Shown: positions 6,355-64,000 of the stretch, one piece after another
Layout of the letters: the number at the start of each line of letters is the position of its first letter
Numbering within the stretch: the first letter of the stretch is position 1
Source: a virus
IMG/VR virus record: IMGVR_UViG_3300006735_000001
Coordinates: 1-64,000 of that record
Direction: 5' to 3' (one strand)
Length of the DNA stretch: 64,000 nt
Translations under genes and position numbers: made by a program
The notes under the pieces: generated by a model
The model's input: the letters and a program-made list of their open reading frames with translations, nothing else
What the model was told of the DNA's origin: nothing
Databases searched by the model: none

Positions 6355-6377
6355 ACACTATATAAATAATATACAAA
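6355..6377 (-). promoter_or_regulatory. Putative phage late promoter, consensus TTTGTATATT-N5-TATAG
   Basis: The 23-mer is identical to 56342-56364. Related copies at 8288, 13526, 24789 and 62181 all lie upstream of minus-strand genes. Confidence 0.7.
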
Positions 6378-8287: not shown

Positions 8288-8307
8288 CTATAATAATAAT
8301 ATACAAA
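8288..8307 (-). promoter_or_regulatory. Putative late promoter
   Basis: TTTGTATATTATTATTATAG on the minus strand. Confidence 0.65.
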
Positions 8308-10484: not shown

Positions 10485-12104
10485 CTAGAATGATCCTCCT
10501 GTTATAGGGTTTCTCATTACAATTTTTAGAACTTTAGTTGGATCCTTAACCCAAATAGCTGGCATGGTCTGAGTCATATAAACTCTATATCCATTGAATT
10601 GTCCAGTAGAAGCAAAACCTTGAGTTCTTCCCATGTAGTCCATAGTACCATTTTGGTAGAACCACTTAAGTTGATTATCCCAAGAAAGTTTCAACAAGTG
10701 AATGTTGTCATTTCCTTCATCTGTTACATCAAAAATAATAAAGCTAAATGAACTTAGAGGTCTACCATCAATCAATGGATTCTCAATGTCATTAGTGTTT
10801 AAGTTATCAAATGCTGGATTTAATACAAACTTAACGTTAGCTAAGAATGGAATAGTAAAGCTTGTGTAAGCAAAACCAAAATCTAAATCCATACCAGAAC
10901 CTTGTACAGCTCCAATTTGTGATGCATTTTGAACTAAACCTGAACCATAAACTTCATCAGCAATTGCTTTGTTGATCAATTGCATACCACCAATACCTGT
11001 TTGTACAATTAATGATCTTTGTGGATCTGGCCCTTTAAACTCAACTTTACCTTGATAGAAGTTATAAAGTTCAGACTTAAACATATCAAGAGTAAATGAT
11101 GACTTGTTATATACTCTTTTGAAAGAGTTATCTAACTGTGACCATAAACCTACAGACAATCTAATATCATCTGGTCCGTCTTGTTTAATTCTACCACCTT
11201 TACCCCACATTAGGTAAGTTTCAATATCTGTTGCAATTTTAGATAAATGTGCTGCTTCCATATTTGTAATGAAAGTTCTTGTAAGAGTTCCATTTTCAAA
11301 TGCTTCTCTAGCACCAGCTTTACCCATTGTTGCTACTAACCCTTCAATACTAGGTACTGATGGATTGTTAGGATCATTATCAAAGTTTCTCCAAATCTCT
11401 GTAACAGGTACAGTTCCATCAGCATTCAATCCGCCTTTAATCATAAGATCAGCACGGCTTGAAATAGAATAGTGTACGTGTGCTTCAGCTCCTCCTACAA
11501 AATTGTAGAATTCTCTGAATCCAGAACCTGTTTCAATGTCAGAAAATCTTTCACCATATTCTCCTCTTGCAGAACCTTTTCTAAAGAACTTTGTTCCTTT
11601 AGCTAGATATTTATTATCTAAAGATGCTGCGTTGTTGTTATTTACTAATTGTACTTGATAAACATATCCATCACCTGCAGGAATAATATCATCTGCTGTA
11701 ATGTAAAGTTCAAGACCGTTATACTTGTCATAAGTGATAATATCACCGTGACCAAACGCTCTTTTGTTGATCTTAATCTTAAAGTAGGTTCCATCAATAC
11801 CTTTGCTAGCGTTAGCAGGTTCAATGTCAGCTACAATGTAAGGAAGATCTTGTGCAATAGGAGTCTGCCATTTGTACTCACCTCTAGCATTATCCACAAG
11901 TATTGTATTCTTTCCACCAAAGGAAGCCATTTGATATAAAGGCATTTCTACCTTTTGGGTCATTGCCCATAAATCAATTGGTCCCATATCCATAGGCTCA
12001 GGATTACCAAGCATTTGGGTAAGGTGATAAGAATCAACATGTGAACTAGCTTTGTAGCTTGTATCTCTTAGAAAGATCCCATTATTTAAAACCGGAGTTG
12101 CCAT
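10485..12104 (-). CDS. Major capsid protein (crAss-like)
   Basis: 539 aa in the order TerL-portal-scaffold-MCP. Contains LMWGKGG, GLWSQL and WVKDPTK motifs and is followed by a strong terminator. Confidence 0.85.
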   Translation of the reverse strand: MATPVLNNGIFLRDTSYKASSHVDSYHLTQMLGNPEPMDMGPIDLWAMTQKVEMPLYQMASFGGKNTILVDNARGEYKWQTPIAQDLPYIVADIEPANASKGIDGTYFKIKINKRAFGHGDIITYDKYNGLELYITADDIIPAGDGYVYQVQLVNNNNAASLDNKYLAKGTKFFRKGSARGEYGERFSDIETGSGFREFYNFVGGAEAHVHYSISSRADLMIKGGLNADGTVPVTEIWRNFDNDPNNPSVPSIEGLVATMGKAGAREAFENGTLTRTFITNMEAAHLSKIATDIETYLMWGKGGRIKQDGPDDIRLSVGLWSQLDNSFKRVYNKSSFTLDMFKSELYNFYQGKVEFKGPDPQRSLIVQTGIGGMQLINKAIADEVYGSGLVQNASQIGAVQGSGMDLDFGFAYTSFTIPFLANVKFVLNPAFDNLNTNDIENPLIDGRPLSSFSFIIFDVTDEGNDNIHLLKLSWDNQLKWFYQNGTMDYMGRTQGFASTGQFNGYRVYMTQTMPAIWVKDPTKVLKIVMRNPITGGSF

Positions 12105-13613: not shown

Positions 13614-16364
13614 CTATTTTTTATTGTCAGATTTAGGAGAATCATATTTATTTTTGTTTTCTCTTGCTATTTGAAGTTTAGTGTCAGCTATTTGTTTTTG
13701 TGAAGCAATTTTTTCTCTTTCAACTTCTAATCTACTATTTTCCAGCATAGACTTATTAGTGTTTTGTTGACGTTGAAGATTCATTTGTTCTCTATATTGA
13801 GTTTGTTGTCTAATATCTTTCATAGCATCCTGATAATCAGACTGTTTGTTTTGATTTATATCAACCATAGAACCATAACCAGCTGATCTTATTTCAGCAA
13901 GAAGGACATCATTTTTTCTATCCTTTTCATTTTCATTTATCTCAACTTGAAGTTTTTGTTGCTCTTCTTGAGCTTTAGCTTGTATTTGTTGCTCTTGCAT
14001 CTGGCGTTGTTGATCCATTTCTTGCTGTCTTTGAGCTTGCATTCTTGTTTCAGCATCTTTAAGTATATCTGATACCTCTGCAATTGAGTCAGCTTTTACA
14101 ATATTTCCTAGTTCATAAATACTTGCACCTGTAGTATTATTTGTAAGAGCCATTTGTTTTAAGTTTTCTAGTATAGCTCTGTGGTTAGTTTTAGTAGTTG
14201 CAAATACATTAAAATCTCTAAGTAATAAATCAGTGCCATTAATAGTAAAATTAACCTTCTCAGCCTCTGTAGAGATATATTGTAATCTTATACTTGGTGT
14301 ATTACTATAATAATATTGTGCTAAATCAGTTCTCATCTGGTGAACTCTTGGCATTAAATGATCTGAATGCTGTACAAAATACATTTCTGTTTGAGCATAA
14401 GATTGCTGCATAGCTTGTACTACACCTGTTGCTGTTTGAGCTGATACAGCTCCTCCTAGACGTTGTGGATTTACACCTATAGCATCAAAACATTGTTGTT
14501 TAAAATAATTAGCTAATTGTATTCTTGACATTAATCTATTAGTTTGCTCCATGTTTAGAGTTTGATAATGATTAAAGTTAGTAGCATTTTCAGTATTAGT
14601 AATAGATGTATCTAATGGTAACATTTGAAAGTCTTTCATTGCTACAAATGCTTTAGCATAATTATTTTTACCCCAATCCTCACCCATTGAATGACGAGGT
14701 AAAGCATTTTGATCAAACATAATAACTGTACCTAATTCATCTATTAAGATATCTGCAATCTGGTTATTAACCATATTGTAACCAACCTGATAAGCTTTCA
14801 TTAAATCTACTAATGAAGTTGATCTTGTATTTCTATCTGAAAATACTCTTCCTTCTACAGGAAGCTTACAACCATATAATGAATTATTTCCTTTAAATTG
14901 AAAAGGTAATCTACCAGGCTTAGTTCTATTGATACCAATATATATTGGATTAATATTATCACCCATAGTAGATCTCCACATTGCTGGTAAATTTGGTCCT
15001 AATTTTACACCTCCCCATACTTCATTAATCCAAATCCAATCAATATGTTCACCACCTATTAAATTATCTTTAGTTTTACTTTTAAAGATTGATGTATCAT
15101 ATACTGCCTTTTTAGTAATTCTAAATGTTTCATCAACTATCTCTTGAGTTATTTCACCATCTTCTTCTATCTTAGTTAGATGTCCAACTTTTCTTTGAGT
15201 TTTCCAATATATGGTAGAAACTCTCATCAAGTTACCTTCACCCCACATTTGTACATCTTCTCCTTCATTTAATATTTCACTTAAAATATCACCACCATTA
15301 GCAGGATCATTATGATAATTACTTACAAATTGTCTATATGGTAAACCAGGCATTTCAGTGTTCCATGCATGAGATCTTTTTGGATCATAGTATGAACCAT
15401 CATTTTGGTATCCGTTAACTTGATATTGAGCAGATCTTGCTGGATATATTTTTTGTAGTGAGGTAAGTTGTTTCTCATCCATTAAATATCCATATCTATC
15501 TACTACATCTGATACAGTCATTAAATCTACTTTACCTACATAATTTGAATCTGAGATATATCTTTGTTCTGGAGACTTTTGGTAAAAGCTTAATACTGGG
15601 TTCCATAATTCTATATCATAATCATCTTCTAACATTCGGAAATGCCAAAACTCTCTGTCTGCAATAAGCATATCTCTAAATCCTCTTTCTTCAAGCTCTT
15701 GCATTTTAAATCTTTCCTCATCTACATTTAATTGATGAGTAGCCCACTCTTCTATCATACTTCTATATGACTTGCTAAAAAAGTCTTCAATCTCAGGTAA
15801 TGTTTTTAAATTTTCTGGCTTTAGTTGTTGTACAGCTTGTTCTGAACCAGGATCCATTCCCATTGCAATCATTTTTTGAAGCATTTCTGCTTCAGCATCT
15901 GCAAGTAAGGATTCTTCAACCTGCATTTTCTTTTGTTCTAACATCTCATTATAAGATGTATCATCTACTGCTCTAAATTGTACTTTAGTATATCTTTTAG
16001 CAAACTCACCTGATAAAACATTTACTACATTTGGAATAATTGGATAAAATTTTAACTCAAGTGCAGAATCATTTTCTTGAGTAAGAGTTTCCATTAAATC
16101 TTTATAGTCATTATCAGGCTCTATAATATAATCTGACTTATCAATAATACCTTTTGCTAGCTTGTAATTTTTTAGTAAACGCCTAGCATTATTACGTAAA
16201 AACTCAATACCTTGTAGTTCAAGCCAGTCTAAATTCCATGCCGCCCAATCATCTGTTTTATCTTTATATGGTAAAAACTGAATAGGTTGTGTTAGACTTG
16301 AAAACGTTGGTCCATCCTCAGCTTTAGCACCATTTTTAAGTTGCATTGCATTTAATACTCTCAT
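13614..16364 (-). CDS. Portal protein
   Basis: 916 aa directly after TerL. Contains FYPIIPNVVNVLSGE, WINEVWGG, GVNPQRLG and a long Q-rich C-terminal coil, as in crAss-like portals. Confidence 0.85.
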   Translation of the reverse strand: MRVLNAMQLKNGAKAEDGPTFSSLTQPIQFLPYKDKTDDWAAWNLDWLELQGIEFLRNNARRLLKNYKLAKGIIDKSDYIIEPDNDYKDLMETLTQENDSALELKFYPIIPNVVNVLSGEFAKRYTKVQFRAVDDTSYNEMLEQKKMQVEESLLADAEAEMLQKMIAMGMDPGSEQAVQQLKPENLKTLPEIEDFFSKSYRSMIEEWATHQLNVDEERFKMQELEERGFRDMLIADREFWHFRMLEDDYDIELWNPVLSFYQKSPEQRYISDSNYVGKVDLMTVSDVVDRYGYLMDEKQLTSLQKIYPARSAQYQVNGYQNDGSYYDPKRSHAWNTEMPGLPYRQFVSNYHNDPANGGDILSEILNEGEDVQMWGEGNLMRVSTIYWKTQRKVGHLTKIEEDGEITQEIVDETFRITKKAVYDTSIFKSKTKDNLIGGEHIDWIWINEVWGGVKLGPNLPAMWRSTMGDNINPIYIGINRTKPGRLPFQFKGNNSLYGCKLPVEGRVFSDRNTRSTSLVDLMKAYQVGYNMVNNQIADILIDELGTVIMFDQNALPRHSMGEDWGKNNYAKAFVAMKDFQMLPLDTSITNTENATNFNHYQTLNMEQTNRLMSRIQLANYFKQQCFDAIGVNPQRLGGAVSAQTATGVVQAMQQSYAQTEMYFVQHSDHLMPRVHQMRTDLAQYYYSNTPSIRLQYISTEAEKVNFTINGTDLLLRDFNVFATTKTNHRAILENLKQMALTNNTTGASIYELGNIVKADSIAEVSDILKDAETRMQAQRQQEMDQQRQMQEQQIQAKAQEEQQKLQVEINENEKDRKNDVLLAEIRSAGYGSMVDINQNKQSDYQDAMKDIRQQTQYREQMNLQRQQNTNKSMLENSRLEVEREKIASQKQIADTKLQIARENKNKYDSPKSDNKK

Positions 16365-18551
16365 TTATCTAAAGTTTTTGAATCCAGATCTTCTTGTATT
16401 TGAATTTCTATTAGTTTTTTTACGCCCAATATTTTTGAACGGACTATACTTTAATTTAGTAATTTTTTGTGACTTAACCAAGGATTTCTCTTCAGTTTCA
16501 CGTCTTTTACTATATCCCCTGTTTGACTGTTGAATTTTAGAAAATGCCACCAATGCACAAAAAGAAACCATTCTATCCACATTCAAACCAGGATGATATG
16601 CCATCATTTCTTTAATTAACATTTGATCTGGTATACGTTCAATACCAAAAGTTTGTGAAATAACATTACCTTCAACATCTAACTCTTCATCTATAACCTC
16701 TCTTAAAAATTCTATACCATAAGATATTAAATGACTTTTAAATAAAGTACCTGTATTTTTCCAACCATACTCTTGATATACTGTTCTATTAGATCCTAGA
16801 TCTTTTAAAAATAATATCTGTTGTTTAGGTACTAAATATCTTTGTTTTTTTCTAGCAATCATATGTTGAATAAATAAAGAAATATTATTCTCCACTATTG
16901 TCCATGCATTATACCACTCTATGATATATTCTAATCTTTCATGTGTTTTATTAATATCATCATATCTACCACACCATGATGCTACTACTTTATCTTTTTC
17001 TATAAATTGTTCTATATCTCCCGCTTCATTAGTACGTGTTACTTCTGTAGCATTTTTATACACAAAGATACTACATAATGAATCTGACGTAGTAGTCTTT
17101 CCTTCTGACACAGGATCAATAGATGCATAGTATGCTCCAAATTGAGGATCTTTGATTGGACGTTCCCATACAACTATACTACCTGTTTTATCTTGTTGTC
17201 TTTTATTTACTGGAAATTCAGATATAGGTAATTTGGTTGTTCTTTTTGGGACAATACCTTTTTCATCCCTATCTAAAGTAATTAATTCATATGGATATGA
17301 TTTTTCTTCTATACGTTTTAATTGTCTACTTAATAGTCCCTGTGGAAAAATTGATTCTTTTCTATAAGCAAATGCTTCAGAAATATTTAATGGCTTCTGA
17401 GATATTCTAAGTTGAAACTGTTCAGAGTTTAATTCAACCTTCCATCTTTCTCTTTCTAATTTAATAGCTGCAATTGCTTCATCAATTAAACTATTACCGT
17501 ATTCATCAATGTATGGTGGCATAGACCATTGTTCAGGAATAAATAAACCTGCCATACCAATTGTTCCATCAGCATCTATTAAATTTGTTTCTACTGCATA
17601 TATATCATTTCCAACTGGATTAAGTATCATATCTTTAAGTGGATTACATTGTGATAAATCACCCACTGATCCTGCTGCAATAAACATACCTGTAGTTACC
17701 ATACCAGAAGACATAGCAGGACGTAAATACTCATAAGTTTCTGACATTTTAGGTGCTATACCTGCTTCCTCATGAAAAAAATATGTACATGGTCCACCTA
17801 CACCAGTAGTAGCATTTTTCTCAAATGAAGCACCTTGTATTTTAGATTTTAAACCTCTAGAAGTTTTTCTATTATTAATTTTAACTTCTATCTGTTGTTG
17901 CCATAATAATACTTTTTCTGGATTACTAGGTCTATACCAGGCAGTATGCTCATTTAAAAAAGTTTTATATTCTTCTAAAAATTTCCAAGAACCTTTATCA
18001 TTTATATAATCTTTTAATGAAGCCCCAATCTTACATATAGATCCTTCTTCAAACCAATACTGGTTAATTATTTTAGCCATATGAAAATATGAAGAAGCTA
18101 TTTGCCTTTTCTTTAATATGGCTGCATGTTGATTATTTAACTCAGCAATAATTTCATATAATGCCATATGATATTGTGCATCTCTTACTTTTGCAAAACC
18201 ATATTTTTTTTCTTCTTTATCAAAAATAGGTAAAAAGTTAAGCCACATATAGTAATCTCTGGTAAGATACCATTCATTATTACCTTCTTTATATATTACT
18301 CCTTCTCTACATTTAATCTTTTCAAATTCCCAATAAGCAGTAAAGTCTTTTGACCTAAAAGGTTTATTACAGTAATGTCCTTCTTCATTAAATATTTTAG
18401 CTTGTTCATTAAAAGACCAGGCAATCTTTGTAAAATTATATTCACCTGGTTCTTTAAATATACTTTCTAAGTATTCTCTAAAACTTAAATCACTTTCAAA
18501 TGTAGTAGTAGTCCATTTTTTATTTTCATATGTAGGTATGTTTCTACTCAT
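16365..18551 (-). CDS. terL: Terminase large subunit
   Basis: Degenerate Walker A (LKKRQIASS), Walker B (FFHEEAG), and nuclease motifs SIDPV, IVENN and NVDRMVS. Confidence 0.9.
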   Translation of the reverse strand: MSRNIPTYENKKWTTTTFESDLSFREYLESIFKEPGEYNFTKIAWSFNEQAKIFNEEGHYCNKPFRSKDFTAYWEFEKIKCREGVIYKEGNNEWYLTRDYYMWLNFLPIFDKEEKKYGFAKVRDAQYHMALYEIIAELNNQHAAILKKRQIASSYFHMAKIINQYWFEEGSICKIGASLKDYINDKGSWKFLEEYKTFLNEHTAWYRPSNPEKVLLWQQQIEVKINNRKTSRGLKSKIQGASFEKNATTGVGGPCTYFFHEEAGIAPKMSETYEYLRPAMSSGMVTTGMFIAAGSVGDLSQCNPLKDMILNPVGNDIYAVETNLIDADGTIGMAGLFIPEQWSMPPYIDEYGNSLIDEAIAAIKLERERWKVELNSEQFQLRISQKPLNISEAFAYRKESIFPQGLLSRQLKRIEEKSYPYELITLDRDEKGIVPKRTTKLPISEFPVNKRQQDKTGSIVVWERPIKDPQFGAYYASIDPVSEGKTTTSDSLCSIFVYKNATEVTRTNEAGDIEQFIEKDKVVASWCGRYDDINKTHERLEYIIEWYNAWTIVENNISLFIQHMIARKKQRYLVPKQQILFLKDLGSNRTVYQEYGWKNTGTLFKSHLISYGIEFLREVIDEELDVEGNVISQTFGIERIPDQMLIKEMMAYHPGLNVDRMVSFCALVAFSKIQQSNRGYSKRRETEEKSLVKSQKITKLKYSPFKNIGRKKTNRNSNTRRSGFKNFR

Positions 18552-56341: not shown

Positions 56342-56364
56342 ACACTATATAAATAATATACAAA
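56342..56364 (-). promoter_or_regulatory. Putative late promoter
   Basis: 23-mer identical to 6355-6377. Confidence 0.7.
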
Positions 56365-56533: not shown

Positions 56534-57514
56534 ATGCAACAAAACATATTTAATTCTAGGGTAAATATCCTACCTTATGAATATCCACAATTATTAAAAT
56601 ACAAAGACGCAATTAGACATTCTTACTGGATTGATACTGAGTTCAACTTTACAGAAGACATCCAAGATTTTAAAGTCAATATATCAAGTAATGAAAAAGA
56701 TGTAATTAAAAAAACCATGCTTGCTATTGCGCAAATAGAGGTTAATGTAAAAACTTTTTGGGGAGACTTATATAAACGCATGCCTATTACAGAGATAGGA
56801 GATGTAGGCTTTACTTTTGCTGAGTCAGAAGTTAGACATAAAGATGCTTATGCAAGGTTGCTTAGGATATTAGGATTAGAGAAAGAATTTCAATCAGTAG
56901 TTGAAGTTCCTGCAATAGAAGGTAGACTTAAGTACTTAAAGAAATACCTGGACGGTACACGCTCTAGAGATAATAAGATGTACACCAAGTCTGTATTACT
57001 GTTTTCACTATTTATAGAGCACGTAAGCCTGTTTAGTCAATTCTTAATTATGATGAGCTTTAACAAAGAAAAGAATGTACTTAAAGGTATATCTAATGTT
57101 GTTGAGGCTACTAGTAAAGAAGAGGAGATACATGGTAACTTTGGTGCTGAGATTATTAATATAATCAAAAGAGAAAATCCAGAATGGTTTGATCAAGAGT
57201 TTGAAGAATTAATTGATTCAGCTTGTAGAAAAGCTTATACAGCTGAGTGTGGAATACTTGATTGGATTTTTGAAAAAGGGGAACTTAGTTTCCTGCCACA
57301 GAATACAATACAACATTTTATAAAAAACAGATTTAATAACTCTTTAGATAAAATAGGTATGAAGCCCATCTTTGAAGTAGACCAAGAACTATTAAAGTCA
57401 GTAGAATGGTTTGATATAGAAATTACTGGTACTAAAGAAGGAGATTTCTTTTACAAGAAGAGTATTGACTATAATAAGAAAAGCAAGAGCATCACTGAAG
57501 ATGATCTATTTTAA
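56534..57514 (+). CDS. nrdB: Ribonucleotide reductase small (beta) subunit, class Id-like
   Basis: E69 (IAQIEVNVK, K73), E99xxH102, Y106, IEHVSLFSQF, EEEIHG, DFFYKKSIDY. Confidence 0.92.
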   Translation: MQQNIFNSRVNILPYEYPQLLKYKDAIRHSYWIDTEFNFTEDIQDFKVNISSNEKDVIKKTMLAIAQIEVNVKTFWGDLYKRMPITEIGDVGFTFAESEVRHKDAYARLLRILGLEKEFQSVVEVPAIEGRLKYLKKYLDGTRSRDNKMYTKSVLLFSLFIEHVSLFSQFLIMMSFNKEKNVLKGISNVVEATSKEEEIHGNFGAEIINIIKRENPEWFDQEFEELIDSACRKAYTAECGILDWIFEKGELSFLPQNTIQHFIKNRFNNSLDKIGMKPIFEVDQELLKSVEWFDIEITGTKEGDFFYKKSIDYNKKSKSITEDDLF

Positions 57515-57525
57515 ATAATAATATA

Positions 57526-57666
57526 ATGATAACAGAGCAAACTAATGGTAACACTCAAGTAAACACAGAGAGAGGAAACTTCAATCAAAGAGTTTCTAAA
57601 TTTAAGATGTTGGGTAAATCCAAGAAAGTCCAATGGGACGGTAAGAGAAGAAACAGAACAATTTAA
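57526..57666 (+). CDS. Small basic ORF between nrdB and nrdA, not in the ORF track
   Basis: MITEQTNGNTQVNTERGNFNQRVSKFKMLGKSKKVQWDGKRRNRTI*. Confidence 0.5.
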   Translation: MITEQTNGNTQVNTERGNFNQRVSKFKMLGKSKKVQWDGKRRNRTI

Positions 57667-57675
57667 ATAAAACCA

Positions 57676-59301
57676 ATGGAATATAATAAATACTACTGGC
57701 TTAATGAAGACAGCCGCACATTTTTATCAAGAGGATATATAACAGAAGAACCAGAACAAAGAATAAAAGACATAGCAAATACAGCAGAGAAATATCTACA
57801 CATGCCCGGTTTTGCTGAGAAGTTTGAAAAATACATGTCTAAAGGATTCTATAGTCTATCAACACCAGTATGGATTAATTTTGGAAAACAAAAAGGACTG
57901 CCTATAAGTTGTTATGGATCTAACATAGATGACAATCTAGATAGTATACTCAATGCAGGCCGTGAAATAGGTATGATGTCTAAATATGGCGGAGGTACAA
58001 GTTGTTATCTTGGTAATATAAGACCTAGAGGATCGGTTATATCAACAGGAGGACTAGCAGATGGTCCTGTGCACTATGCTAGAATATACGATACTGTGGT
58101 AGATGTATGTAAACAGTCTGAAGCAAGACGTGGTGCTTGTGCTGCTTATCTACCAATAGAGCATACAGACATTGAAGAGTTCCTAGATATTGGAACTGAG
58201 GGAAACTTAATACAAAATTTACAGTATGGTGTTACTGTAAGTAGTAGTTGGTTAGAACAAATGCGTGCTGGTGATAAAGCTAAACGTAAAATGTGGGCTA
58301 AAGTAATTCAAAGAAGGAGTGAGTTTGGTTATCCTTATATAATGTTTACGGACAACTCAAATAACAATAGCCCATATAAAGAAATAGGAATGAAGATCAC
58401 TGCATCTAATTTATGTTCTGAGATTCAGTTGCCTACTGATACATATAACTCATTTGTATGTTGTTTAGGTTCTATAAACTTATTGCACTGGGATGAAATT
58501 ATTAAAACAGACGCTATAGAAACATATGTGTTCTTTTTAAATGCTGTTATGGATGAATTCATTAAAAAGGCTGAAGTAAAAGCTGGCCTTAAAAGAGCAT
58601 ATAACTTTGCTAGCAAACATAGAGCTATTGGTTTAGGAGTATTGGGATACCATAGTTTATTTCAATCAAAACTAATAGAGTTTGAGTCACTAGCAGCTAA
58701 ACAATTAAACAATCATATATTTAAACATTTAAAAGAAACGTCAGATGAAGCATCAAGATGGTTATATCAACACAGAGGATACAGATCCTTACGTGAAGGA
58801 TATGCAAACACAACTCTTATGGCTATTGCTCCTACTAAATCAAGTTCATTTATCCACGGTGCTGTATCTATGGGTATTGAGCCAATAAAATCTAATTACT
58901 TTATTAAGGACCTTGCTAAGTCTAAGACTATATACAAAAATCCATTTCTTGTAGAAGAATTAAATAAGTATGGATTAAACACAAAGAAGACCTGGGCAAG
59001 TATACTTAAGAAAGATGGATCCGTACAACACTTGGACTTTCCAACTAAAGCTGTATTCAAATCGTTTGTTGAGATAACACCTAAAGAGTTAGTTTTGCAA
59101 GCTGCACAAAGACAGAAGTATATTGATCAATCACAATCTTTAAATCTTATGATACATCCATCTGTATCTGCTAAAGATATAAATGCATTATATTTATATG
59201 CACATGATGAGGGCGTGAAAACTTTATACTATCAGTTTAGTCAAAGCTCTGCTCAAGACTTTGCTAGAAATATATTAGAGTGTTCTAGCTGTGAAGGTTA
59301 G
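57676..59301 (+). CDS. nrdA: Ribonucleotide reductase large (alpha) subunit, no ATP cone
   Basis: ISC, GGGT, SNLCSEI, VCCLGS, APTKSSS, DQSQS, TLYY, C-terminal CSSCEG. Confidence 0.95.
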   Translation: MEYNKYYWLNEDSRTFLSRGYITEEPEQRIKDIANTAEKYLHMPGFAEKFEKYMSKGFYSLSTPVWINFGKQKGLPISCYGSNIDDNLDSILNAGREIGMMSKYGGGTSCYLGNIRPRGSVISTGGLADGPVHYARIYDTVVDVCKQSEARRGACAAYLPIEHTDIEEFLDIGTEGNLIQNLQYGVTVSSSWLEQMRAGDKAKRKMWAKVIQRRSEFGYPYIMFTDNSNNNSPYKEIGMKITASNLCSEIQLPTDTYNSFVCCLGSINLLHWDEIIKTDAIETYVFFLNAVMDEFIKKAEVKAGLKRAYNFASKHRAIGLGVLGYHSLFQSKLIEFESLAAKQLNNHIFKHLKETSDEASRWLYQHRGYRSLREGYANTTLMAIAPTKSSSFIHGAVSMGIEPIKSNYFIKDLAKSKTIYKNPFLVEELNKYGLNTKKTWASILKKDGSVQHLDFPTKAVFKSFVEITPKELVLQAAQRQKYIDQSQSLNLMIHPSVSAKDINALYLYAHDEGVKTLYYQFSQSSAQDFARNILECSSCEG

Positions 59302-59804
59302 TCTCTTCTAGGAATTCCTTTACTTTTTACTACACTAGGAACCCGTGGTTTTGAGTTTGTATTATTTCGCTGTACATTAATAGTAGATCTTGTATTATTT
59401 ATATTGTTATTCCAACTTTGTATATTTATATTTGATCTACTGTTGACAGGCGGGACTACAATATTATTACTAGTTCTTGGGCCATTTATTCTAACTCTTG
59501 GTTTCTCAACCTTATCCGGCTTAATATATAGATCTCTAAAATACCATGTCTGTGGTCTATATATTTGATACCCAAAGTTATAGGGCTGGTTCCAATAGTA
59601 GTTATTCCAATTATTGAATCTATAGTTATCAAATACATTTACATAATTATACTTCTGGAATTCTTTTATAGGTATAGCAACTGTATCGCCTGCAGATGTT
59701 ATAGTTAAGACTTTAGTAATTTTTAATTTAGGTGTAGTCTCTAAGTTATAAACTCCACAACTCAAAATACTATGCAAGCATAATAGTAATATTAATTTTT
59801 TCAT
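59298..59804 (-). CDS. Lipoprotein with aromatic-rich middle and disordered Asn/Arg-rich tail
   Basis: MKKLILLLCLHSILSC lipobox. Confidence 0.7.
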   Translation of the reverse strand: MKKLILLLCLHSILSCGVYNLETTPKLKITKVLTITSAGDTVAIPIKEFQKYNYVNVFDNYRFNNWNNYYWNQPYNFGYQIYRPQTWYFRDLYIKPDKVEKPRVRINGPRTSNNIVVPPVNSRSNINIQSWNNNINNTRSTINVQRNNTNSKPRVPSVVKSKGIPRRD

Positions 59805-60205
59805 AAGCCTCGTTTATTGGTGTTAAGTGTTTTTTTCTTACCCCCGTCATAGACATATGCATGCCCTTCTTCTATTAAAGTTTTACAGACATCAATCTGC
59901 AAGCCTTGTTCATTCTTTATAAATACTTCTGCAAGAACCCTGCCGTACTTTCCAGTACCGTATGAGCGTATTCGGAAGAAACTCTTATCACACGTCTGTT
60001 CTGTCAGCATTTCTTTAGTTCGTGCCTTAGCCGCAAGTCCTTTTTCTTTCTCTTCTAAATCCTTCGTTCTGCACTCCCAAGTATCTAAACCGTAAAATCT
60101 AATTCTCTTTTTGACCCAGGTATCAAAACCTAAATCAATCATTGCGTCCACAGTATCTCCGTCAACTACTCGTAATAGTCTAGCTTTATATATATATTTT
60201 TCCAT
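59801..60205 (-). CDS. Thermonuclease (SNase) family protein
   Basis: RVVDGDT, RIRFYGLDTWE, GKYGRVLA, LIEEGHA. Confidence 0.9.
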   Translation of the reverse strand: MEKYIYKARLLRVVDGDTVDAMIDLGFDTWVKKRIRFYGLDTWECRTKDLEEKEKGLAAKARTKEMLTEQTCDKSFFRIRSYGTGKYGRVLAEVFIKNEQGLQIDVCKTLIEEGHAYVYDGGKKKTLNTNKRGL

Positions 60206-60209
60206 AATA

Positions 60210-60608
60210 TTAAAATTGACTTGCCTCAGATAAGTCGTTTATATCAGACTGTAACTTATCTAGATCTACAGGACACTCAAGATCTAATCCGGCTTTATAT
60301 GTAAATTCTTTGAAACCCTCTTTAAATATTATAAGTGTGGGGGCCATGCGTATTCTATATTTTTTCTTTGAATCTGGTGAGTCAGCTATATTACATCTAT
60401 AGTATTTAACTCCTGTAAGTTTTTCCCAGTCTTGAAAAGCATTGTCTTTATTAAAGTCTGCATAAAACTCAATTACAACTATCTCATAATCTTCTTCAAA
60501 AGCATTGTTACCTGAAATGGCACTATCAAACTCTTTATCTGTTACCCAGTCTTGGGCCACTACTTGTGTCCCTACTAGCAGTAATAATAATGTTAGTAAG
60601 TACCTCAT
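60210..60608 (-). CDS. Exported thioredoxin-fold protein lacking CxxC
   Basis: Signal peptide, VVIEFYADFN in place of WCxxC, KYRIRMAPTLIIFKEG. Confidence 0.75.
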   Translation of the reverse strand: MRYLLTLLLLLVGTQVVAQDWVTDKEFDSAISGNNAFEEDYEIVVIEFYADFNKDNAFQDWEKLTGVKYYRCNIADSPDSKKKYRIRMAPTLIIFKEGFKEFTYKAGLDLECPVDLDKLQSDINDLSEASQF

Positions 60609-60611
60609 AGC

Positions 60612-60902
60612 TTATTTTTTGGTTAGATCATAGATTCTCTCTTCCATCTTCTCAAACTTTTCTAGCAGCATCTCTACATCTTCTTGAGTTTCCATTATAG
60701 TCTGTCTGACAAGTTCATCTTTAAGATCATACTCAACTCTATTTATTGGTGGTTCAGGCATTTCCATTGCATGAGCTATATCAGCTTGAAGTGTAAACCA
60801 CATTGTTGCTAATGTAATTGTAAACCCTACAATCATACCTATTGTTTTTAAATCTAAAGTTACTTTAGTTTCTTCTCCTATCTGTGGTGCCTGTTGTGCC
60901 AT
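60612..60902 (-). CDS. Single-TM protein with a coiled-coil
   Basis: IGMIVGFTITLATMWFTL followed by PEPP and heptads. Confidence 0.7.
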   Translation of the reverse strand: MAQQAPQIGEETKVTLDLKTIGMIVGFTITLATMWFTLQADIAHAMEMPEPPINRVEYDLKDELVRQTIMETQEDVEMLLEKFEKMEERIYDLTKK

Positions 60903-60908
60903 TATTTA

Positions 60909-62144
60909 TTATTTAAATGAAAAGTTTAAACCTATACTACTTTGGTATAACTCACTATCCCAGAATTTACCATATTCTCCTTCTATAAAGACACCAAAGT
61001 TTTTACTTAATTTCCATCCTAGATTGATACCTAGATTGTAATCTTCCCATTGTTCATGCTGTGAGTCTTCTATTAGTCCGCCTTTACCCCAGTTGTTTCT
61101 ATTTAAATAACTAAAGTCCTCATCCCCAGTAATATATGTGTGATTGGGTAATATATAATTAGCATAAGCATGTAACCAAAATTTACTCTTATAATGATAG
61201 AAGTCAAAACCTACTATAGGTGCTATCTCTCCAAATTCACTAATAAGGTCCCATTGTTCATTATTATATCTATTAATAAGATCTCTAAATACTGAATTTC
61301 TAAAATCTAAATCTGAGTATGCCACTATATTTCCGTCTGCATCTTTCCAAATCCAGTCTTGTCTTTCTTCACCTGTGGTCACATCCGTGTAAGTTGTATA
61401 ATGATCTGTGTATCCATATTCAAAACCTAAAGAATACCATGGATTAATAGGGTACTCAACAACTTCACCTTCAGGTGTTGTAAATGTTTCTGTTTCATTC
61501 AACCATATTTCAATGGGGTTATATCCGTAAGCACGCTCATGAGTACGGTAGATAGCACCAGCTGAAATACTAAACTTTTTTCCAATAGGCAAGCGTAGTC
61601 TGGCCTCAGCAGACTTATAGTTTAGGTTAATACTTCCTACTTCTCTTGATTCAGCTTTAATTATATGATATTTACCTGTATGCTTAACAAATATTCTATG
61701 ATTATTGAATTCTTCTCCACGGAGTCTTTCTTTTTCTATGTGAAACTGATACTCTAATCCTGCTAGAGCAGAGGTTGGTGCAGTAAATGCCAGTTGTTGT
61801 TCTGTACCATCATACCAATTTCTTGGTTTTCTTTCATAGCTAAATCTGGCCAGCTTTCTGATTCCAAATCCTATTCTATAATCAAAGTCATAGTACTCTG
61901 TTACATCTACTACACGGGGTATACCATAAAGATCTCCTTCATCAGGTCTCTCTACAAAAAAGTCTTGTCTGCTTGTCTGATAGGAATTACGTGCATCACC
62001 TGCTGCATATACAGTTCCATACTGTAAAAAGTCTTGGTATAATGCCTTGAAGAACTTACCTTTTTCTTTTACTTCTTGTGAGTGAGAAGCATTAGGTAAA
62101 AACAAAAGTAGTATAAAAACCAACAGACTTAAATAGTTTTTCAT
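60909..62144 (-). CDS. Putative outer-membrane beta-barrel protein
   Basis: Signal peptide, alternating amphipathic Y/F/G-rich strands, and a C-terminal SIGLNFSFK beta-signal-like end. Confidence 0.7.
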   Translation of the reverse strand: MKNYLSLLVFILLLFLPNASHSQEVKEKGKFFKALYQDFLQYGTVYAAGDARNSYQTSRQDFFVERPDEGDLYGIPRVVDVTEYYDFDYRIGFGIRKLARFSYERKPRNWYDGTEQQLAFTAPTSALAGLEYQFHIEKERLRGEEFNNHRIFVKHTGKYHIIKAESREVGSINLNYKSAEARLRLPIGKKFSISAGAIYRTHERAYGYNPIEIWLNETETFTTPEGEVVEYPINPWYSLGFEYGYTDHYTTYTDVTTGEERQDWIWKDADGNIVAYSDLDFRNSVFRDLINRYNNEQWDLISEFGEIAPIVGFDFYHYKSKFWLHAYANYILPNHTYITGDEDFSYLNRNNWGKGGLIEDSQHEQWEDYNLGINLGWKLSKNFGVFIEGEYGKFWDSELYQSSIGLNFSFK

Positions 62145-62180
62145 ATTTAAAGTTTAATATTAATCTAGTTTAATGTTGGT

Positions 62181-62200
62181 CTATAAATATAATATACAGA
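62181..62200 (-). promoter_or_regulatory. Putative late promoter
   Basis: TCTGTATATTATATTTATAG upstream of the beta-barrel gene. Confidence 0.6.
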
Positions 62201-62241: not shown

Positions 62242-64000
62242 TTATTTAATAAAGAAATCTTCCATAGTGGAGTAACTACGCCATTTATTAAACGTATGTA
62301 ATATTGGTAATGCATCTCCCCAGTTTTTCCATAATTTTAATTTACCTTTTCTTTTTCCTTGTTGATAGTATACATCTTTGTTAGCTTTAACATCTAAGTC
62401 ACTTTGTACCATATAGTAAAAAGGTGTTTCTAAAGTCATCCATAGTGCCTCTGATAATTCTCCCATTGTTCTTGTTGAAGCAATAGGTGATTTAACCATT
62501 TGCATTTGTTGAGTACCACCAGCTATAGGAAGGAACATTACTAATTCAAATAAAGTTCTATCTGCTTGATATTTTACAACATTTTTCAAACGTTTAACTG
62601 TTTCACTATCATCATCATCACCAGATAAAATAGAGCTAAAGATTATTGAAGTTATTAATACACTCATCATAATACCTATCTCACCCATAGTTCTATAAAA
62701 ACCTTGAAGTTTATTCATAGCTCTTTGGTCTTTGTTACCACCCTCTCCAGTATACCCATAGTCTGCTAAAAAACCATCTTTATAGTTAGTTCTGATTTCT
62801 CCTTTTTTAACCTGCTCAAATACATAACTTAAAAACTTCATAAAGGATACATATCTACCTTCCATAAATCCTAAGTTTTCATCAAAGTATTCTGTTTGAT
62901 ATCTTGCTCTAATTGCAGGAGCAACCCACTTATGAAATTGTGCAGCCAATTTACCAACAGTAATAGATTGCATAACCATTCTATCTTCTTTAGCATAGTT
63001 ACCATGAATCTGTTTATTGACTTCTCTTATTTCATTTCTAATATCATATCTTATTTTATTATACCATTTTTCAAAAGAAACATTACCTTCAGGATTAAAT
63101 GTATCTGACTTACCATTTATTCTAATAATAGTATCAAATCCAGGTCTTAATTCATTTTTATGTGTTTCTGGATTATAATCAAAGGCATCATAAAATGAAA
63201 TTTGTTCCTCAGTCTTACTATTTTTTACTTGCGTATCAATCAAAATAGCCATACCATTTTTTGTTTGTACATTATATTCTGCCGCATCCTGTAGTATATA
63301 ACCCCACTCAGCTGCACGTGCAAACCAACTCTTATTATTTGATGTTGACTCTGTCTGTTCACGCAATTGAGACATGGGGTCCATCATTCTAAAAGAATCT
63401 ACAAAAGCTTCATATTTACTATTAGGCTTAGTAGAATCATATGAGCTAACATTTGCTCCTGGTATTAAGCCTACAGTAATTAAGTTTCCAAAATCTTTAG
63501 CACCTGTATGAGAAGTTCTATAAATTAAATCAGGAATTGCTCTTTTGTTAAATATCATTTCAGCTCTAACGTAAGCTGATCTGCTATAGAATCTACCCCC
63601 TAATGCTTCAATAGCATTATTTATTCTACCAATAACATAGTTATTAAAGTTACCAAATGGATTAAATGCTACATATGCTAATGAAGATATTTGTATAAGT
63701 CCATCTGCAATTTTATCCCAAGCACCCTTACTTACATTTTCGTTATCATAGTAAACCATGCTCATAAACTTTTTAGCACGTCTGACTATGTTTGCTTCTA
63801 CTTGTGTTTCAGATTGTTTCTTACCAATTTTTTTAAATACTCCATTAATTACCTTACCTAAGTCTAAAGAAGGATCAGAATCCCCATATTCTCTTTGTCC
63901 AATCACCTGCAGATAGGCTCTTAACGTATCTTCTATTTCACCCATAACAGAATAATTTTCTGCCATTGCTGTAAAAGCTAAAATACTTTCTCCTAAATCT
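62242..64000 (-). CDS. C-terminal part of a giant virion (ejection/cargo) protein, partial
   Basis: The frame stays open upstream of 63966 to the window edge (DLGESILAFTAM). Helical, with IHGNY and AQFHKW motifs and a TM-like IGIMMSVLITSIIFSSIL segment, as in crAss-like internal proteins. Confidence 0.7.
   Translation of the reverse strand, partial: DLGESILAFTAMAENYSVMGEIEDTLRAYLQVIGQREYGDSDPSLDLGKVINGVFKKIGKKQSETQVEANIVRRAKKFMSMVYYDNENVSKGAWDKIADGLIQISSLAYVAFNPFGNFNNYVIGRINNAIEALGGRFYSRSAYVRAEMIFNKRAIPDLIYRTSHTGAKDFGNLITVGLIPGANVSSYDSTKPNSKYEAFVDSFRMMDPMSQLREQTESTSNNKSWFARAAEWGYILQDAAEYNVQTKNGMAILIDTQVKNSKTEEQISFYDAFDYNPETHKNELRPGFDTIIRINGKSDTFNPEGNVSFEKWYNKIRYDIRNEIREVNKQIHGNYAKEDRMVMQSITVGKLAAQFHKWVAPAIRARYQTEYFDENLGFMEGRYVSFMKFLSYVFEQVKKGEIRTNYKDGFLADYGYTGEGGNKDQRAMNKLQGFYRTMGEIGIMMSVLITSIIFSSILSGDDDDSETVKRLKNVVKYQADRTLFELVMFLPIAGGTQQMQMVKSPIASTRTMGELSEALWMTLETPFYYMVQSDLDVKANKDVYYQQGKRKGKLKLWKNWGDALPILHTFNKWRSYSTMEDFFIK

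Follow-up and report, generated by a model that had tools for sequence, protein, structure and literature searches.

The DNA analysed here, called the window throughout, is the 64,000-nucleotide stretch formed by bases 1-64000 of the IMG/VR virus record IMGVR_UViG_3300006735_000001, a 113,577-bp sequence with direct terminal repeats. Its minus strand carries a run of five genes that encode, in the direction of transcription, a 411-aa outer-membrane beta-barrel, a 96-aa membrane protein with a single transmembrane (TM) segment and a helical C-terminal domain (TMcc), a 132-aa exported protein of thioredoxin fold (TRX), a 134-aa staphylococcal-nuclease-fold protein (SNase) and a 168-aa lipoprotein (Table 1). 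An earlier interpretation made from the letters alone, the sequence-only reading, had described these genes as a tightly packed, co-directional cassette with its own late-type promoter, in which four products bear export or membrane signals and SNase lacks a signal peptide. All five open reading frames (ORFs) are present, with successive spacings of 6, 3, 4 and -4 nt, and the distribution of signals was borne out by inspection of the sequences together with a Kyte-Doolittle hydropathy scan. The further proposal that all five form one machine across the cell envelope has to be narrowed to three of them, barrel, TMcc and TRX, referred to below as the trio.

Table 1. Location of the features discussed. 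Positions are those of the window or, beyond base 64,000, of the complete record; a locus number before the colon denotes a contig of a related phage.
Feature	Position	Strand	Characteristics
Outer-membrane beta-barrel, 411 aa	60909-62144	-	Sec signal peptide, AF2 fold, structural matches
TMcc, 96 aa	60612-60902	-	Conserved N-terminal tail, one hydrophobic segment, acidic helical C-terminal domain
TRX, 132 aa	60210-60608	-	Exported thioredoxin fold without CxxC; PF00085, PDB profile
SNase, 134 aa	59801-60205	-	Staphylococcal-nuclease fold; PF00565, phrog_452
Lipoprotein, 168 aa	59298-59804	-	Lipobox ILS-C; basic tail rich in Y, W, N and P
Late promoter-like motif TGTATATTATATTTATA	62182-62198	-	38-54 nt upstream of the barrel start codon
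Copies of the late motif TGTATATTAT-N3-TATA	6359-6375, 8289-8305, 56346-56362, 62182-62198; near 90989 and 110495 in the genome	- (window copies)	
Major head protein gene	10485-12104	-	
Portal gene	13614-16364	-	
Large terminase gene	16365-18551	-	
Endolysin candidate, 306 aa	21831-22751	-	Amidase_2, PF01510 (7.9e-12); N-terminus resembling a peptidoglycan-binding domain by eye
ORF of 59 aa	23921-24100	-	Lipobox LFT-C and C-terminal hydrophobic helix; 1.2 kb upstream of the endolysin candidate
Holin candidate, 156 aa	54363-54833	-	phrog_3427 (3.6e-17)
Ribonucleotide reductase beta and alpha genes	56534-59301	+	Convergent with the five-gene run
ORF of 1969 aa	62242-68151	-	Directly upstream of the barrel gene
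TMcc paralogues	L117:7789-8121, L130:7217-7546, L182:7392-7727, L153:2338-2661		Contigs that also carry a normal trio
H-NOX gene	L093:7413-7964		PF07700 (2.3e-45)
PAP2-superfamily gene	L055:10480-11034		PF01569 (8.6e-9); present in four other loci as well

The five genes terminate a late minus-strand block that spans the ends of the record and contains ORFs of 2132, 2185, 848, 842, 1116, 4769 and 1969 aa, the last of which immediately precedes the barrel gene and follows the ORF of 4769 aa; these two are candidate ejection proteins. The same strand encodes the large terminase, the portal and the major head protein. The portal shares 22-33% identity with its counterparts in crAss-like phages that infect Bacteroides, Flavobacterium and Cellulophaga and in one Leptolyngbya phage. 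The source is regarded as an uncultured marine crAss-like phage, the host of which is probably a member of Bacteroidota. Among cultured phages, the top portal match is the Leptolyngbya phage Lbo-JY46 (33%), ahead of the crAss-like phages (about 23%). Searches of cultured phages by blastn and tblastn with the cassette, the barrel and a 500-aa upstream gene returned no match. At its other end, the run meets the plus-strand genes for ribonucleotide reductase (RNR). The lipoprotein gene and the RNR alpha gene overlap at their stop codons by 4 nt (59298-59301), and no terminator-like hairpin was seen between the two convergent units.

The promoter postulated by the sequence-only reading corresponds to the motif TGTATATTATATTTATA, located in the 97-nt gap 5' of the barrel gene and conforming to a pattern common to other late genes. 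This pattern, TGTATATTATNNNTATA, has four copies in the window against 0.5 expected, and none of 100 shuffled sequences reached four. Genome-wide there are six copies, each of them intergenic, on the minus strand and 26-101 nt before late or structural genes. A related motif is kept upstream of the barrel in relatives, including one (L005) in which the preceding gene is a different one. A scan for sigma-70 sites found 35 against 33 expected, that is, no enrichment. As for RNA-derived data, marine metatranscriptome contigs that are about 93% alike across barrel and TMcc were found, although as contigs alone they allow neither transcription nor transcript ends to be read. A library of uncertain kind yielded 313 nt of the SNase gene, likewise as contigs that show neither transcription nor transcript ends.

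That the 411-aa protein is an outer-membrane barrel, as the sequence-only reading had supposed, was confirmed by its signal peptide, its predicted fold and its terminal strand. The signal peptide MKNYLSLLVFILLLFLPNASHS is followed by Q (…PNASHS-Q), the C-terminal alternating strand reads GLNFSFK and aromatic residues make up 18% of the protein. Distant members of the family end in …GINYLIF or …GLNYLIY, a canonical beta-signal (…Y-x-I-F). Models computed with AF2 reached a pLDDT of 67 from 36 sequences and a pLDDT of 84.3 with a pTM of 0.73 from 72 sequences. In three fold searches (Foldseek, VIA-align applied to the Foldseek list and a scan independent of Foldseek), the top matches were all outer-membrane barrels. 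With the first model, VIA-align gave 12-stranded barrels at Z 13.6, the matches including EstA, KdgM, NalP, NanC, Tsx and OMPLA, while the Foldseek-independent scan of the better model gave proteins of TamA/BamA type at Z 11.5 (TamA, BamA, PelB, BcsC, CdiB). The better model is matched best by 16-stranded barrels, although DSSP assigns 12 long strands (possibly more), together with an N-terminal helix at 30-40 and a long conserved turn at 98-128. An insert of about 100 residues (203-303) is confidently modelled.

No Pfam family matches the barrel, and its 2469 homologues are all unnamed; many lie on contigs of 105-125 kb and some occur on more than 50 contigs each, Tara Oceans included. A hidden Markov model built from 28 diverse barrels gave no credible match when run against 400 sampled Bacteroidia genomes. 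A scan of GTDB gave only seven hits, on contigs of metagenome-assembled genomes whose taxonomy is inconsistent (Maricaulis, Woesearchaeota, Flavobacteriaceae); these phage-like contigs are read as mis-binned. Neighbours in the ESM Atlas are viral clusters labelled 'hypothetical protein', and the nearest named ones are outer-membrane barrel families, which can be taken as a lead only. As far as tested in these 400 Bacteroidia genomes and in GTDB, the family appears to be confined to phages. Within the same loci, barrels are 57-86% identical and RNR about 40%. This higher conservation, combined with the lack of a homologue in the sampled Bacteroidia genomes, argues for a generic target in the envelope rather than for a host-derived metabolic gene or a mask of strain-specific receptors.

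TRX carries a signal peptide that ends in …GTQVVA before Q and matches PF00085 at 6e-6 (26.7 bits, cut-off 23.5), and the profile of its family matches thioredoxins in the PDB at 6e-13 to 1e-5. The redox site is lost: in all 31 aligned members the W-C-x-x-C signature is replaced by A-x-F-N-x-x-N, and CxxC is missing from the distant lineage as well, while the cis-proline (P90) and Q19 are invariant in this alignment. Nearly all members end in phenylalanine (…ASQF, …ESKF, …GDVF), which resembles the C-terminal signal of outer-membrane proteins. Glutamine at position +1 of the signal peptide is invariant in TRX and present in at least 90% of the barrels. Since this agrees with the Q-rule of Bacteroidetes signal peptides (PMC5837995), both proteins appear tuned to export in such a host, and the agreement supports the assignment to Bacteroidota.

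In TMcc, the hydrophobic segment at about 21-38 is rich in G, T and S and moderate in strength (Kyte-Doolittle mean over 17 residues, 1.66), and the alignment shows the C-terminal half to be charged and helix-prone. The composition of this segment, with abundant G, T, S and A, resembles that of signal-arrest-release domains able to exit the membrane. In one distant lineage, TMcc measures 139-222 aa owing to an extension ahead of the TM segment, which fits a topology with the N-terminus inside. A candidate MshEN/T2SSE_N domain in the extension of these long forms was dropped, as Pfam gave no match. In the cassette of a distant relative, a lipoprotein gene and the gene for a long TMcc have an H-NOX (haem-NO-binding) gene between them, an unexpected gas sensor in a lysis region. 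In addition, paralogues of about 107-111 aa share the N-terminal motif and TM segment of TMcc but have a different periplasmic part, and a lipoprotein gene often adjoins them; the contigs with these paralogues measure up to 180 kb. All members of the trio are acidic, with net charges of -15 (barrel), -9 (TMcc) and -9 (TRX). A complex prediction for TMcc 40-96 with TRX 19-132, both supplied as alignments, scored 0.02, which is below the mark and speaks neither for nor against binding.

The linkage of the three genes was assessed in two collections of loci. A search seeded with the barrel fetched 76 IMG/VR loci and was extended with the contexts of distant barrels, giving 85 loci with all three genes. 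In the 76 fetched loci, TMcc and TRX follow the barrel almost everywhere, whereas SNase and the 168-aa lipoprotein do not. An independent search seeded with TRX yielded 80 loci, among them contigs of 150-213 kb, with barrel and TMcc both found in every locus whose DNA reached far enough. After pooling, de-duplication by TRX sequence and restriction to loci flanked by 3.5 kb or more on either side, 77 remained. The barrel is present in each of these 77, and in 74 of them TMcc stands immediately upstream of TRX. The order is either barrel-TMcc-TRX or TMcc-TRX-barrel, the latter marking one sub-lineage (the permuted clade); insertions are seen between barrel and TMcc, whereas TMcc and TRX are almost never separated. 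Even barrels of 30-35% identity, carried on other phage backbones, adjoin TMcc and TRX. Barrel, TMcc and TRX are thus an obligate trio, phage-only as far as tested, and the synteny anticipated by the sequence-only reading exists for these three genes and fails for the other two: linkage is fixed for a unit of three, not five.

SNase appears to be an intact, cytoplasmic nuclease of the Ca-dependent type. It matches PF00565 at 2.2e-7 (31.7 bits, cut-off 21) and phrog_452 at 1e-38, has no hydrophobic N-terminus, and retains DGDTV, R-x4-D-T-x-E and KYGR, the Ca-binding and catalytic residues, when aligned to 2sob. It is found near the trio in 9 of the 77 loci, and its position varies between the few lineages concerned, sometimes right after the endolysin, which marks it as a variable accessory gene. 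For the 168-aa lipoprotein, neither Pfam nor PHROG gave a family, and the hydropathy scan showed no hydrophobic segment after its lipobox, a layout unlike that of a unimolecular spanin. Relatives of this protein are encoded in 13 of the first 84 loci, and their place relative to the trio changes from locus to locus. Altogether, three unrelated lipoprotein families of 107-240 aa alternate at this hot spot; a member of any of them is present in 42 of the pooled loci and, in 43 of the 85, is no more than 1 kb away from the trio. Both genes are lineage-specific additions to the hot spot, outside the machine, and the 168-aa lipoprotein could be either an optional outer-membrane partner or a receptor blocker resembling Llp.

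The neighbourhood of the trio in relatives is rich in lysis genes. An endolysin of the Peptidase_M15_3 type (phrog_894, 1.6e-31) lies within 4 kb in 39 of the 77 loci; in the largest clade it is a 153-aa M15 enzyme (PF08291, 1e-13) that begins 150-1900 nt after TRX. In the permuted clade, the barrel is directly followed by an M15 enzyme or by an unrelated Amidase_2 endolysin (phrog_822, 4e-58), the latter occupying the M15 slot in four loci, and a phrog_3427 holin is encoded two genes beyond the endolysin. In the permuted and distant lineages, holins of this family are separated from the trio by 0.4-1.1 kb. Two distant loci show the order TMcc-TRX-barrel-M15 endolysin-holin, and in two loci the endolysin is directly upstream of the barrel. 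A small holin-like protein with two TM segments, designated c31 here (about 75-90 aa; for instance in L117, L128, L141 and L184), directly flanks the trio in 16 of the 77 loci and carries no family annotation. Counting endolysin, holin or c31, 60 of the 77 loci have such a gene near the trio. As non-orthologous endolysins occupy one slot and the same neighbours recur in otherwise dissimilar lineages, a functional link is likelier than inherited synteny alone. A gene of the PAP2 superfamily, resembling lipid phosphatases, was also noted a few genes downstream of the trio in five loci.

It is tentatively proposed, with slightly less than even confidence and on the basis of gene context, that the trio is a module spanning the envelope, expressed late and active in lysis, with the outer membrane as its probable target. 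The reading is favoured by the late-type motif upstream of the barrel, which is shared with structural genes, and by the fact that a canonical spanin pair was not found in about half of the loci. Spanins are lacking in about 15% of phages (10.1101/515445), unimolecular spanins are the only kind that surveys have reported for Bacteroidetes phages, and then occasionally (PMC12596118), and the missing regular pair is a known gap for this group (PMC12596118; 10.1101/515445; PMC10136315). According to the proposed scheme, the trio would be expressed late from the promoter type that structural genes also use. The barrel would be exported through Sec and inserted into the outer membrane, and TMcc would sit in the inner membrane and extend its acidic helical domain into the periplasm. 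TRX would serve as a redox-dead periplasmic adaptor, binding a partner through the surface formed by the former active site and the cis-proline. Once the holin has fired and the endolysin has cleared the peptidoglycan, the three proteins, presumably in contact with one another, would break or destabilise the outer membrane and so take the role held by spanins or disruptin in other phages.

Several observations weigh against this proposal. The functional evidence for lysis is gene context throughout, the loci come from related phages, so that their counts do not represent independent events, and 17 of the 77 have no recognised lysis gene nearby. RNR lies within 4 kb of the trio in 53 of the 77 loci and is thus about as frequent as the lysis markers. 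The periplasmic part of TMcc, at about 55 residues, is short for crossing the periplasm. In the present genome, the holin candidate lies 5.4 kb downstream of the trio in a separate late transcription unit, which opens with its own motif copy (56346-56362) beyond the inverted RNR pair. The endolysin candidate, which matches PHROG endolysin and amidase families down to 1e-13, is 38 kb away from the trio. With the endolysin far from both holin and trio, the lysis genes of this genome are dispersed; no other peptidoglycan hydrolase of the families PF00959, PF13539 or PF01520 was matched in it, and an SLT domain occurs only within the giant 2185-aa protein. Finally, the 59-aa ORF upstream of the endolysin candidate could, from its lipobox and terminal helix, be a miniature unimolecular spanin, which would make the trio unnecessary for the outer-membrane step. 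This ORF is kept in one of five related complete genomes (66% identity, E 2e-19).

Other explanations share part of the same evidence. The trio might regulate lysis rather than execute it, in which case TMcc would pair with the holin or oppose it as an antiholin in the inner membrane, TRX would be a sensor or another antiholin in the periplasm, and the barrel would provide an input from the outer membrane; timing could be tuned, for example, by inhibiting lysis upon superinfection, TRX acting as RI of T4 does on the holin T. Adjacency to lysis genes would be the same in this case, and TMcc, which is small, always coupled to a periplasmic protein and equipped with one weakly hydrophobic segment rich in G, T and S, would suit such a part, while its long cytoplasmic extensions and the H-NOX gene directly upstream of TMcc in L093 suggest signalling. 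Regulators, however, are usually dispensable and patchy, whereas the trio is universal and highly conserved in its phage group; Pfam and PHROG give no homology to known antiholins, and a beta-barrel would be a costly timing device, all of which makes regulation unlikely. The 57-86% conservation of the barrel, including its large predicted loop domain, across phages that are otherwise far more diverged and of very different genome sizes is also unlike a receptor-specific mask. It thereby speaks against the idea that the trio remodels the cell surface, either for superinfection exclusion or to mask or destroy receptors and keep the progeny from being wasted on cell debris, as Llp of T5 does on FhuA, with the variable lipoproteins as receptor-specific parts. 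Envelope targeting of all products, late expression beside lysis genes (protection of progeny at the burst) and the swapping of three unrelated lipoprotein families beside the trio, as expected of host-specific blockers, would agree with this idea, but exclusion genes are typically early and the lipoprotein gene is missing from half of the loci, so that we judge it improbable.

Of the roles offered by the sequence-only reading, unusual lysis is the one that gene context favours, whereas a receptor decoy with a nuclease and an uptake function gained no specific support. Uptake would make the barrel a channel, for nucleosides like Tsx for instance, that feeds the nucleotide metabolism linked to RNR, with TMcc and TRX as helpers. 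Apart from the frequency of RNR near the trio, the structural matches to Tsx, KdgM and NanC (Z 11.9-13.5) point in this direction; they come from the first, weaker model, where porins match no better than unrelated barrels, and in the better model NanC and KdgM fall to Z 8.8-8.9, below the preferred Omp85-type proteins. The barrel has no Pfam sequence family and, unlike typical auxiliary metabolic genes, no host homologue in the 400 Bacteroidia genomes, and the promoter motif is of the late type. The connection to the neighbouring RNR that the sequence-only reading had drawn did not hold either: RNR is mostly convergent and forms a separate transcription unit, part of a replication block that abuts the late block, and the permuted and distant lineages do without it but have endolysin and holin beside the trio. 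The RNR link looks like clade synteny at a module boundary, and uptake is very unlikely. Slightly less likely still is the view that an ordinary two-component spanin is formed by TMcc and the 168-aa lipoprotein, as that reading had considered, with barrel and TRX as unrelated passengers. TMcc has an i-spanin-like layout (an N-terminal TM segment followed by a helical periplasmic part), 43 of 85 loci have a lipoprotein gene no more than 1 kb away from the trio, and the TMcc paralogue adjoins one in contigs of 150-213 kb. Nevertheless, an all-frame lipobox scan found no ORF embedded in or adjacent to TMcc in 45 of 74 loci, five of the closest relatives being among those that lack one. The lipoproteins are of three unrelated families, far longer than typical o-spanins and variable in position, and the constant partner of TMcc is TRX (74 of 77 loci), with no locus lacking the barrel.

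If the trio acts in lysis, its nearest counterparts are the two-component spanins of the lambda Rz/Rz1 type. Like the trio in relatives, these are encoded in the lysis cassette beside endolysin and holin, and their trans-envelope layout, which combines an inner-membrane subunit (N-terminal TM segment and helical periplasmic domain) with a subunit in the outer membrane, resembles the one proposed for the trio. The outer-membrane subunit is a short lipoprotein in spanins and a beta-barrel of about 400 aa in the trio, which further contains an obligatory third protein, the periplasmic TRX. The short periplasmic part of TMcc is a further difference, and fusion of the membranes is not implied. None of the five proteins matches a spanin family in Pfam or PHROG, and where o-spanins are short lipoproteins from embedded, overlapping or adjacent genes, the lipoprotein in the window has 168 aa and its gene is separated from TMcc by two others. 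A precedent for an outer-membrane lysis step without spanins is the disruptin of a spanin-lacking phage (phiKT gp28; 10.1101/515445). Disruptin, however, is a single small cationic peptide, whereas the trio consists of three acidic exported or membrane proteins. Phage-encoded proteins that are exported to the host outer membrane, as proposed for the barrel, include Lom, Bor and the porin Lc of lambdoid phages and Llp of T5. These are single and dispensable, often expressed from prophages or early, and have host homologues, unlike the barrel, a late protein confined to phages whose gene is tied to those of two partners. Phages are known to use thioredoxin independently of its redox activity, as the processivity factor of T7 DNA polymerase and in f1 assembly. 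In both cases the fold serves as a structural partner and not as a reductase, as would be the case for TRX. T7 and f1 borrow the redox-competent cytoplasmic thioredoxin of the host, whereas TRX is phage-encoded, exported and devoid of CxxC across its family. A full-text search of the literature returned no description of a phage module composed of a barrel, a TM protein and a dead thioredoxin, in agreement with the statement of the sequence-only reading that it knew of no system of such composition. The parts of the module have no homology to spanins or to disruptin.

For phages of Bacteroidota, little has been established about the way out through the outer membrane when infection ends, and the trio is found in thousands of marine phage contigs. 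It may be, although we hold this with reservation, that the trio represents a new class of phage lysis machinery and the standard means of breaching the outer membrane for a very large group of Bacteroidota phages, from the sea and possibly also from elsewhere. In such a class, which is conceivable without being assured, a phage-only barrel would be coupled by a redox-dead TRX to an anchor in the inner membrane, as a third type of disruptor beside spanins and disruptin. If true, this would be the first phage machine built on an outer-membrane barrel of its own, and it would put a dead thioredoxin to a new structural use. A lytic trio would also affect the release of carbon from Flavobacteriia, a group with a major part in degrading the material of algal blooms.

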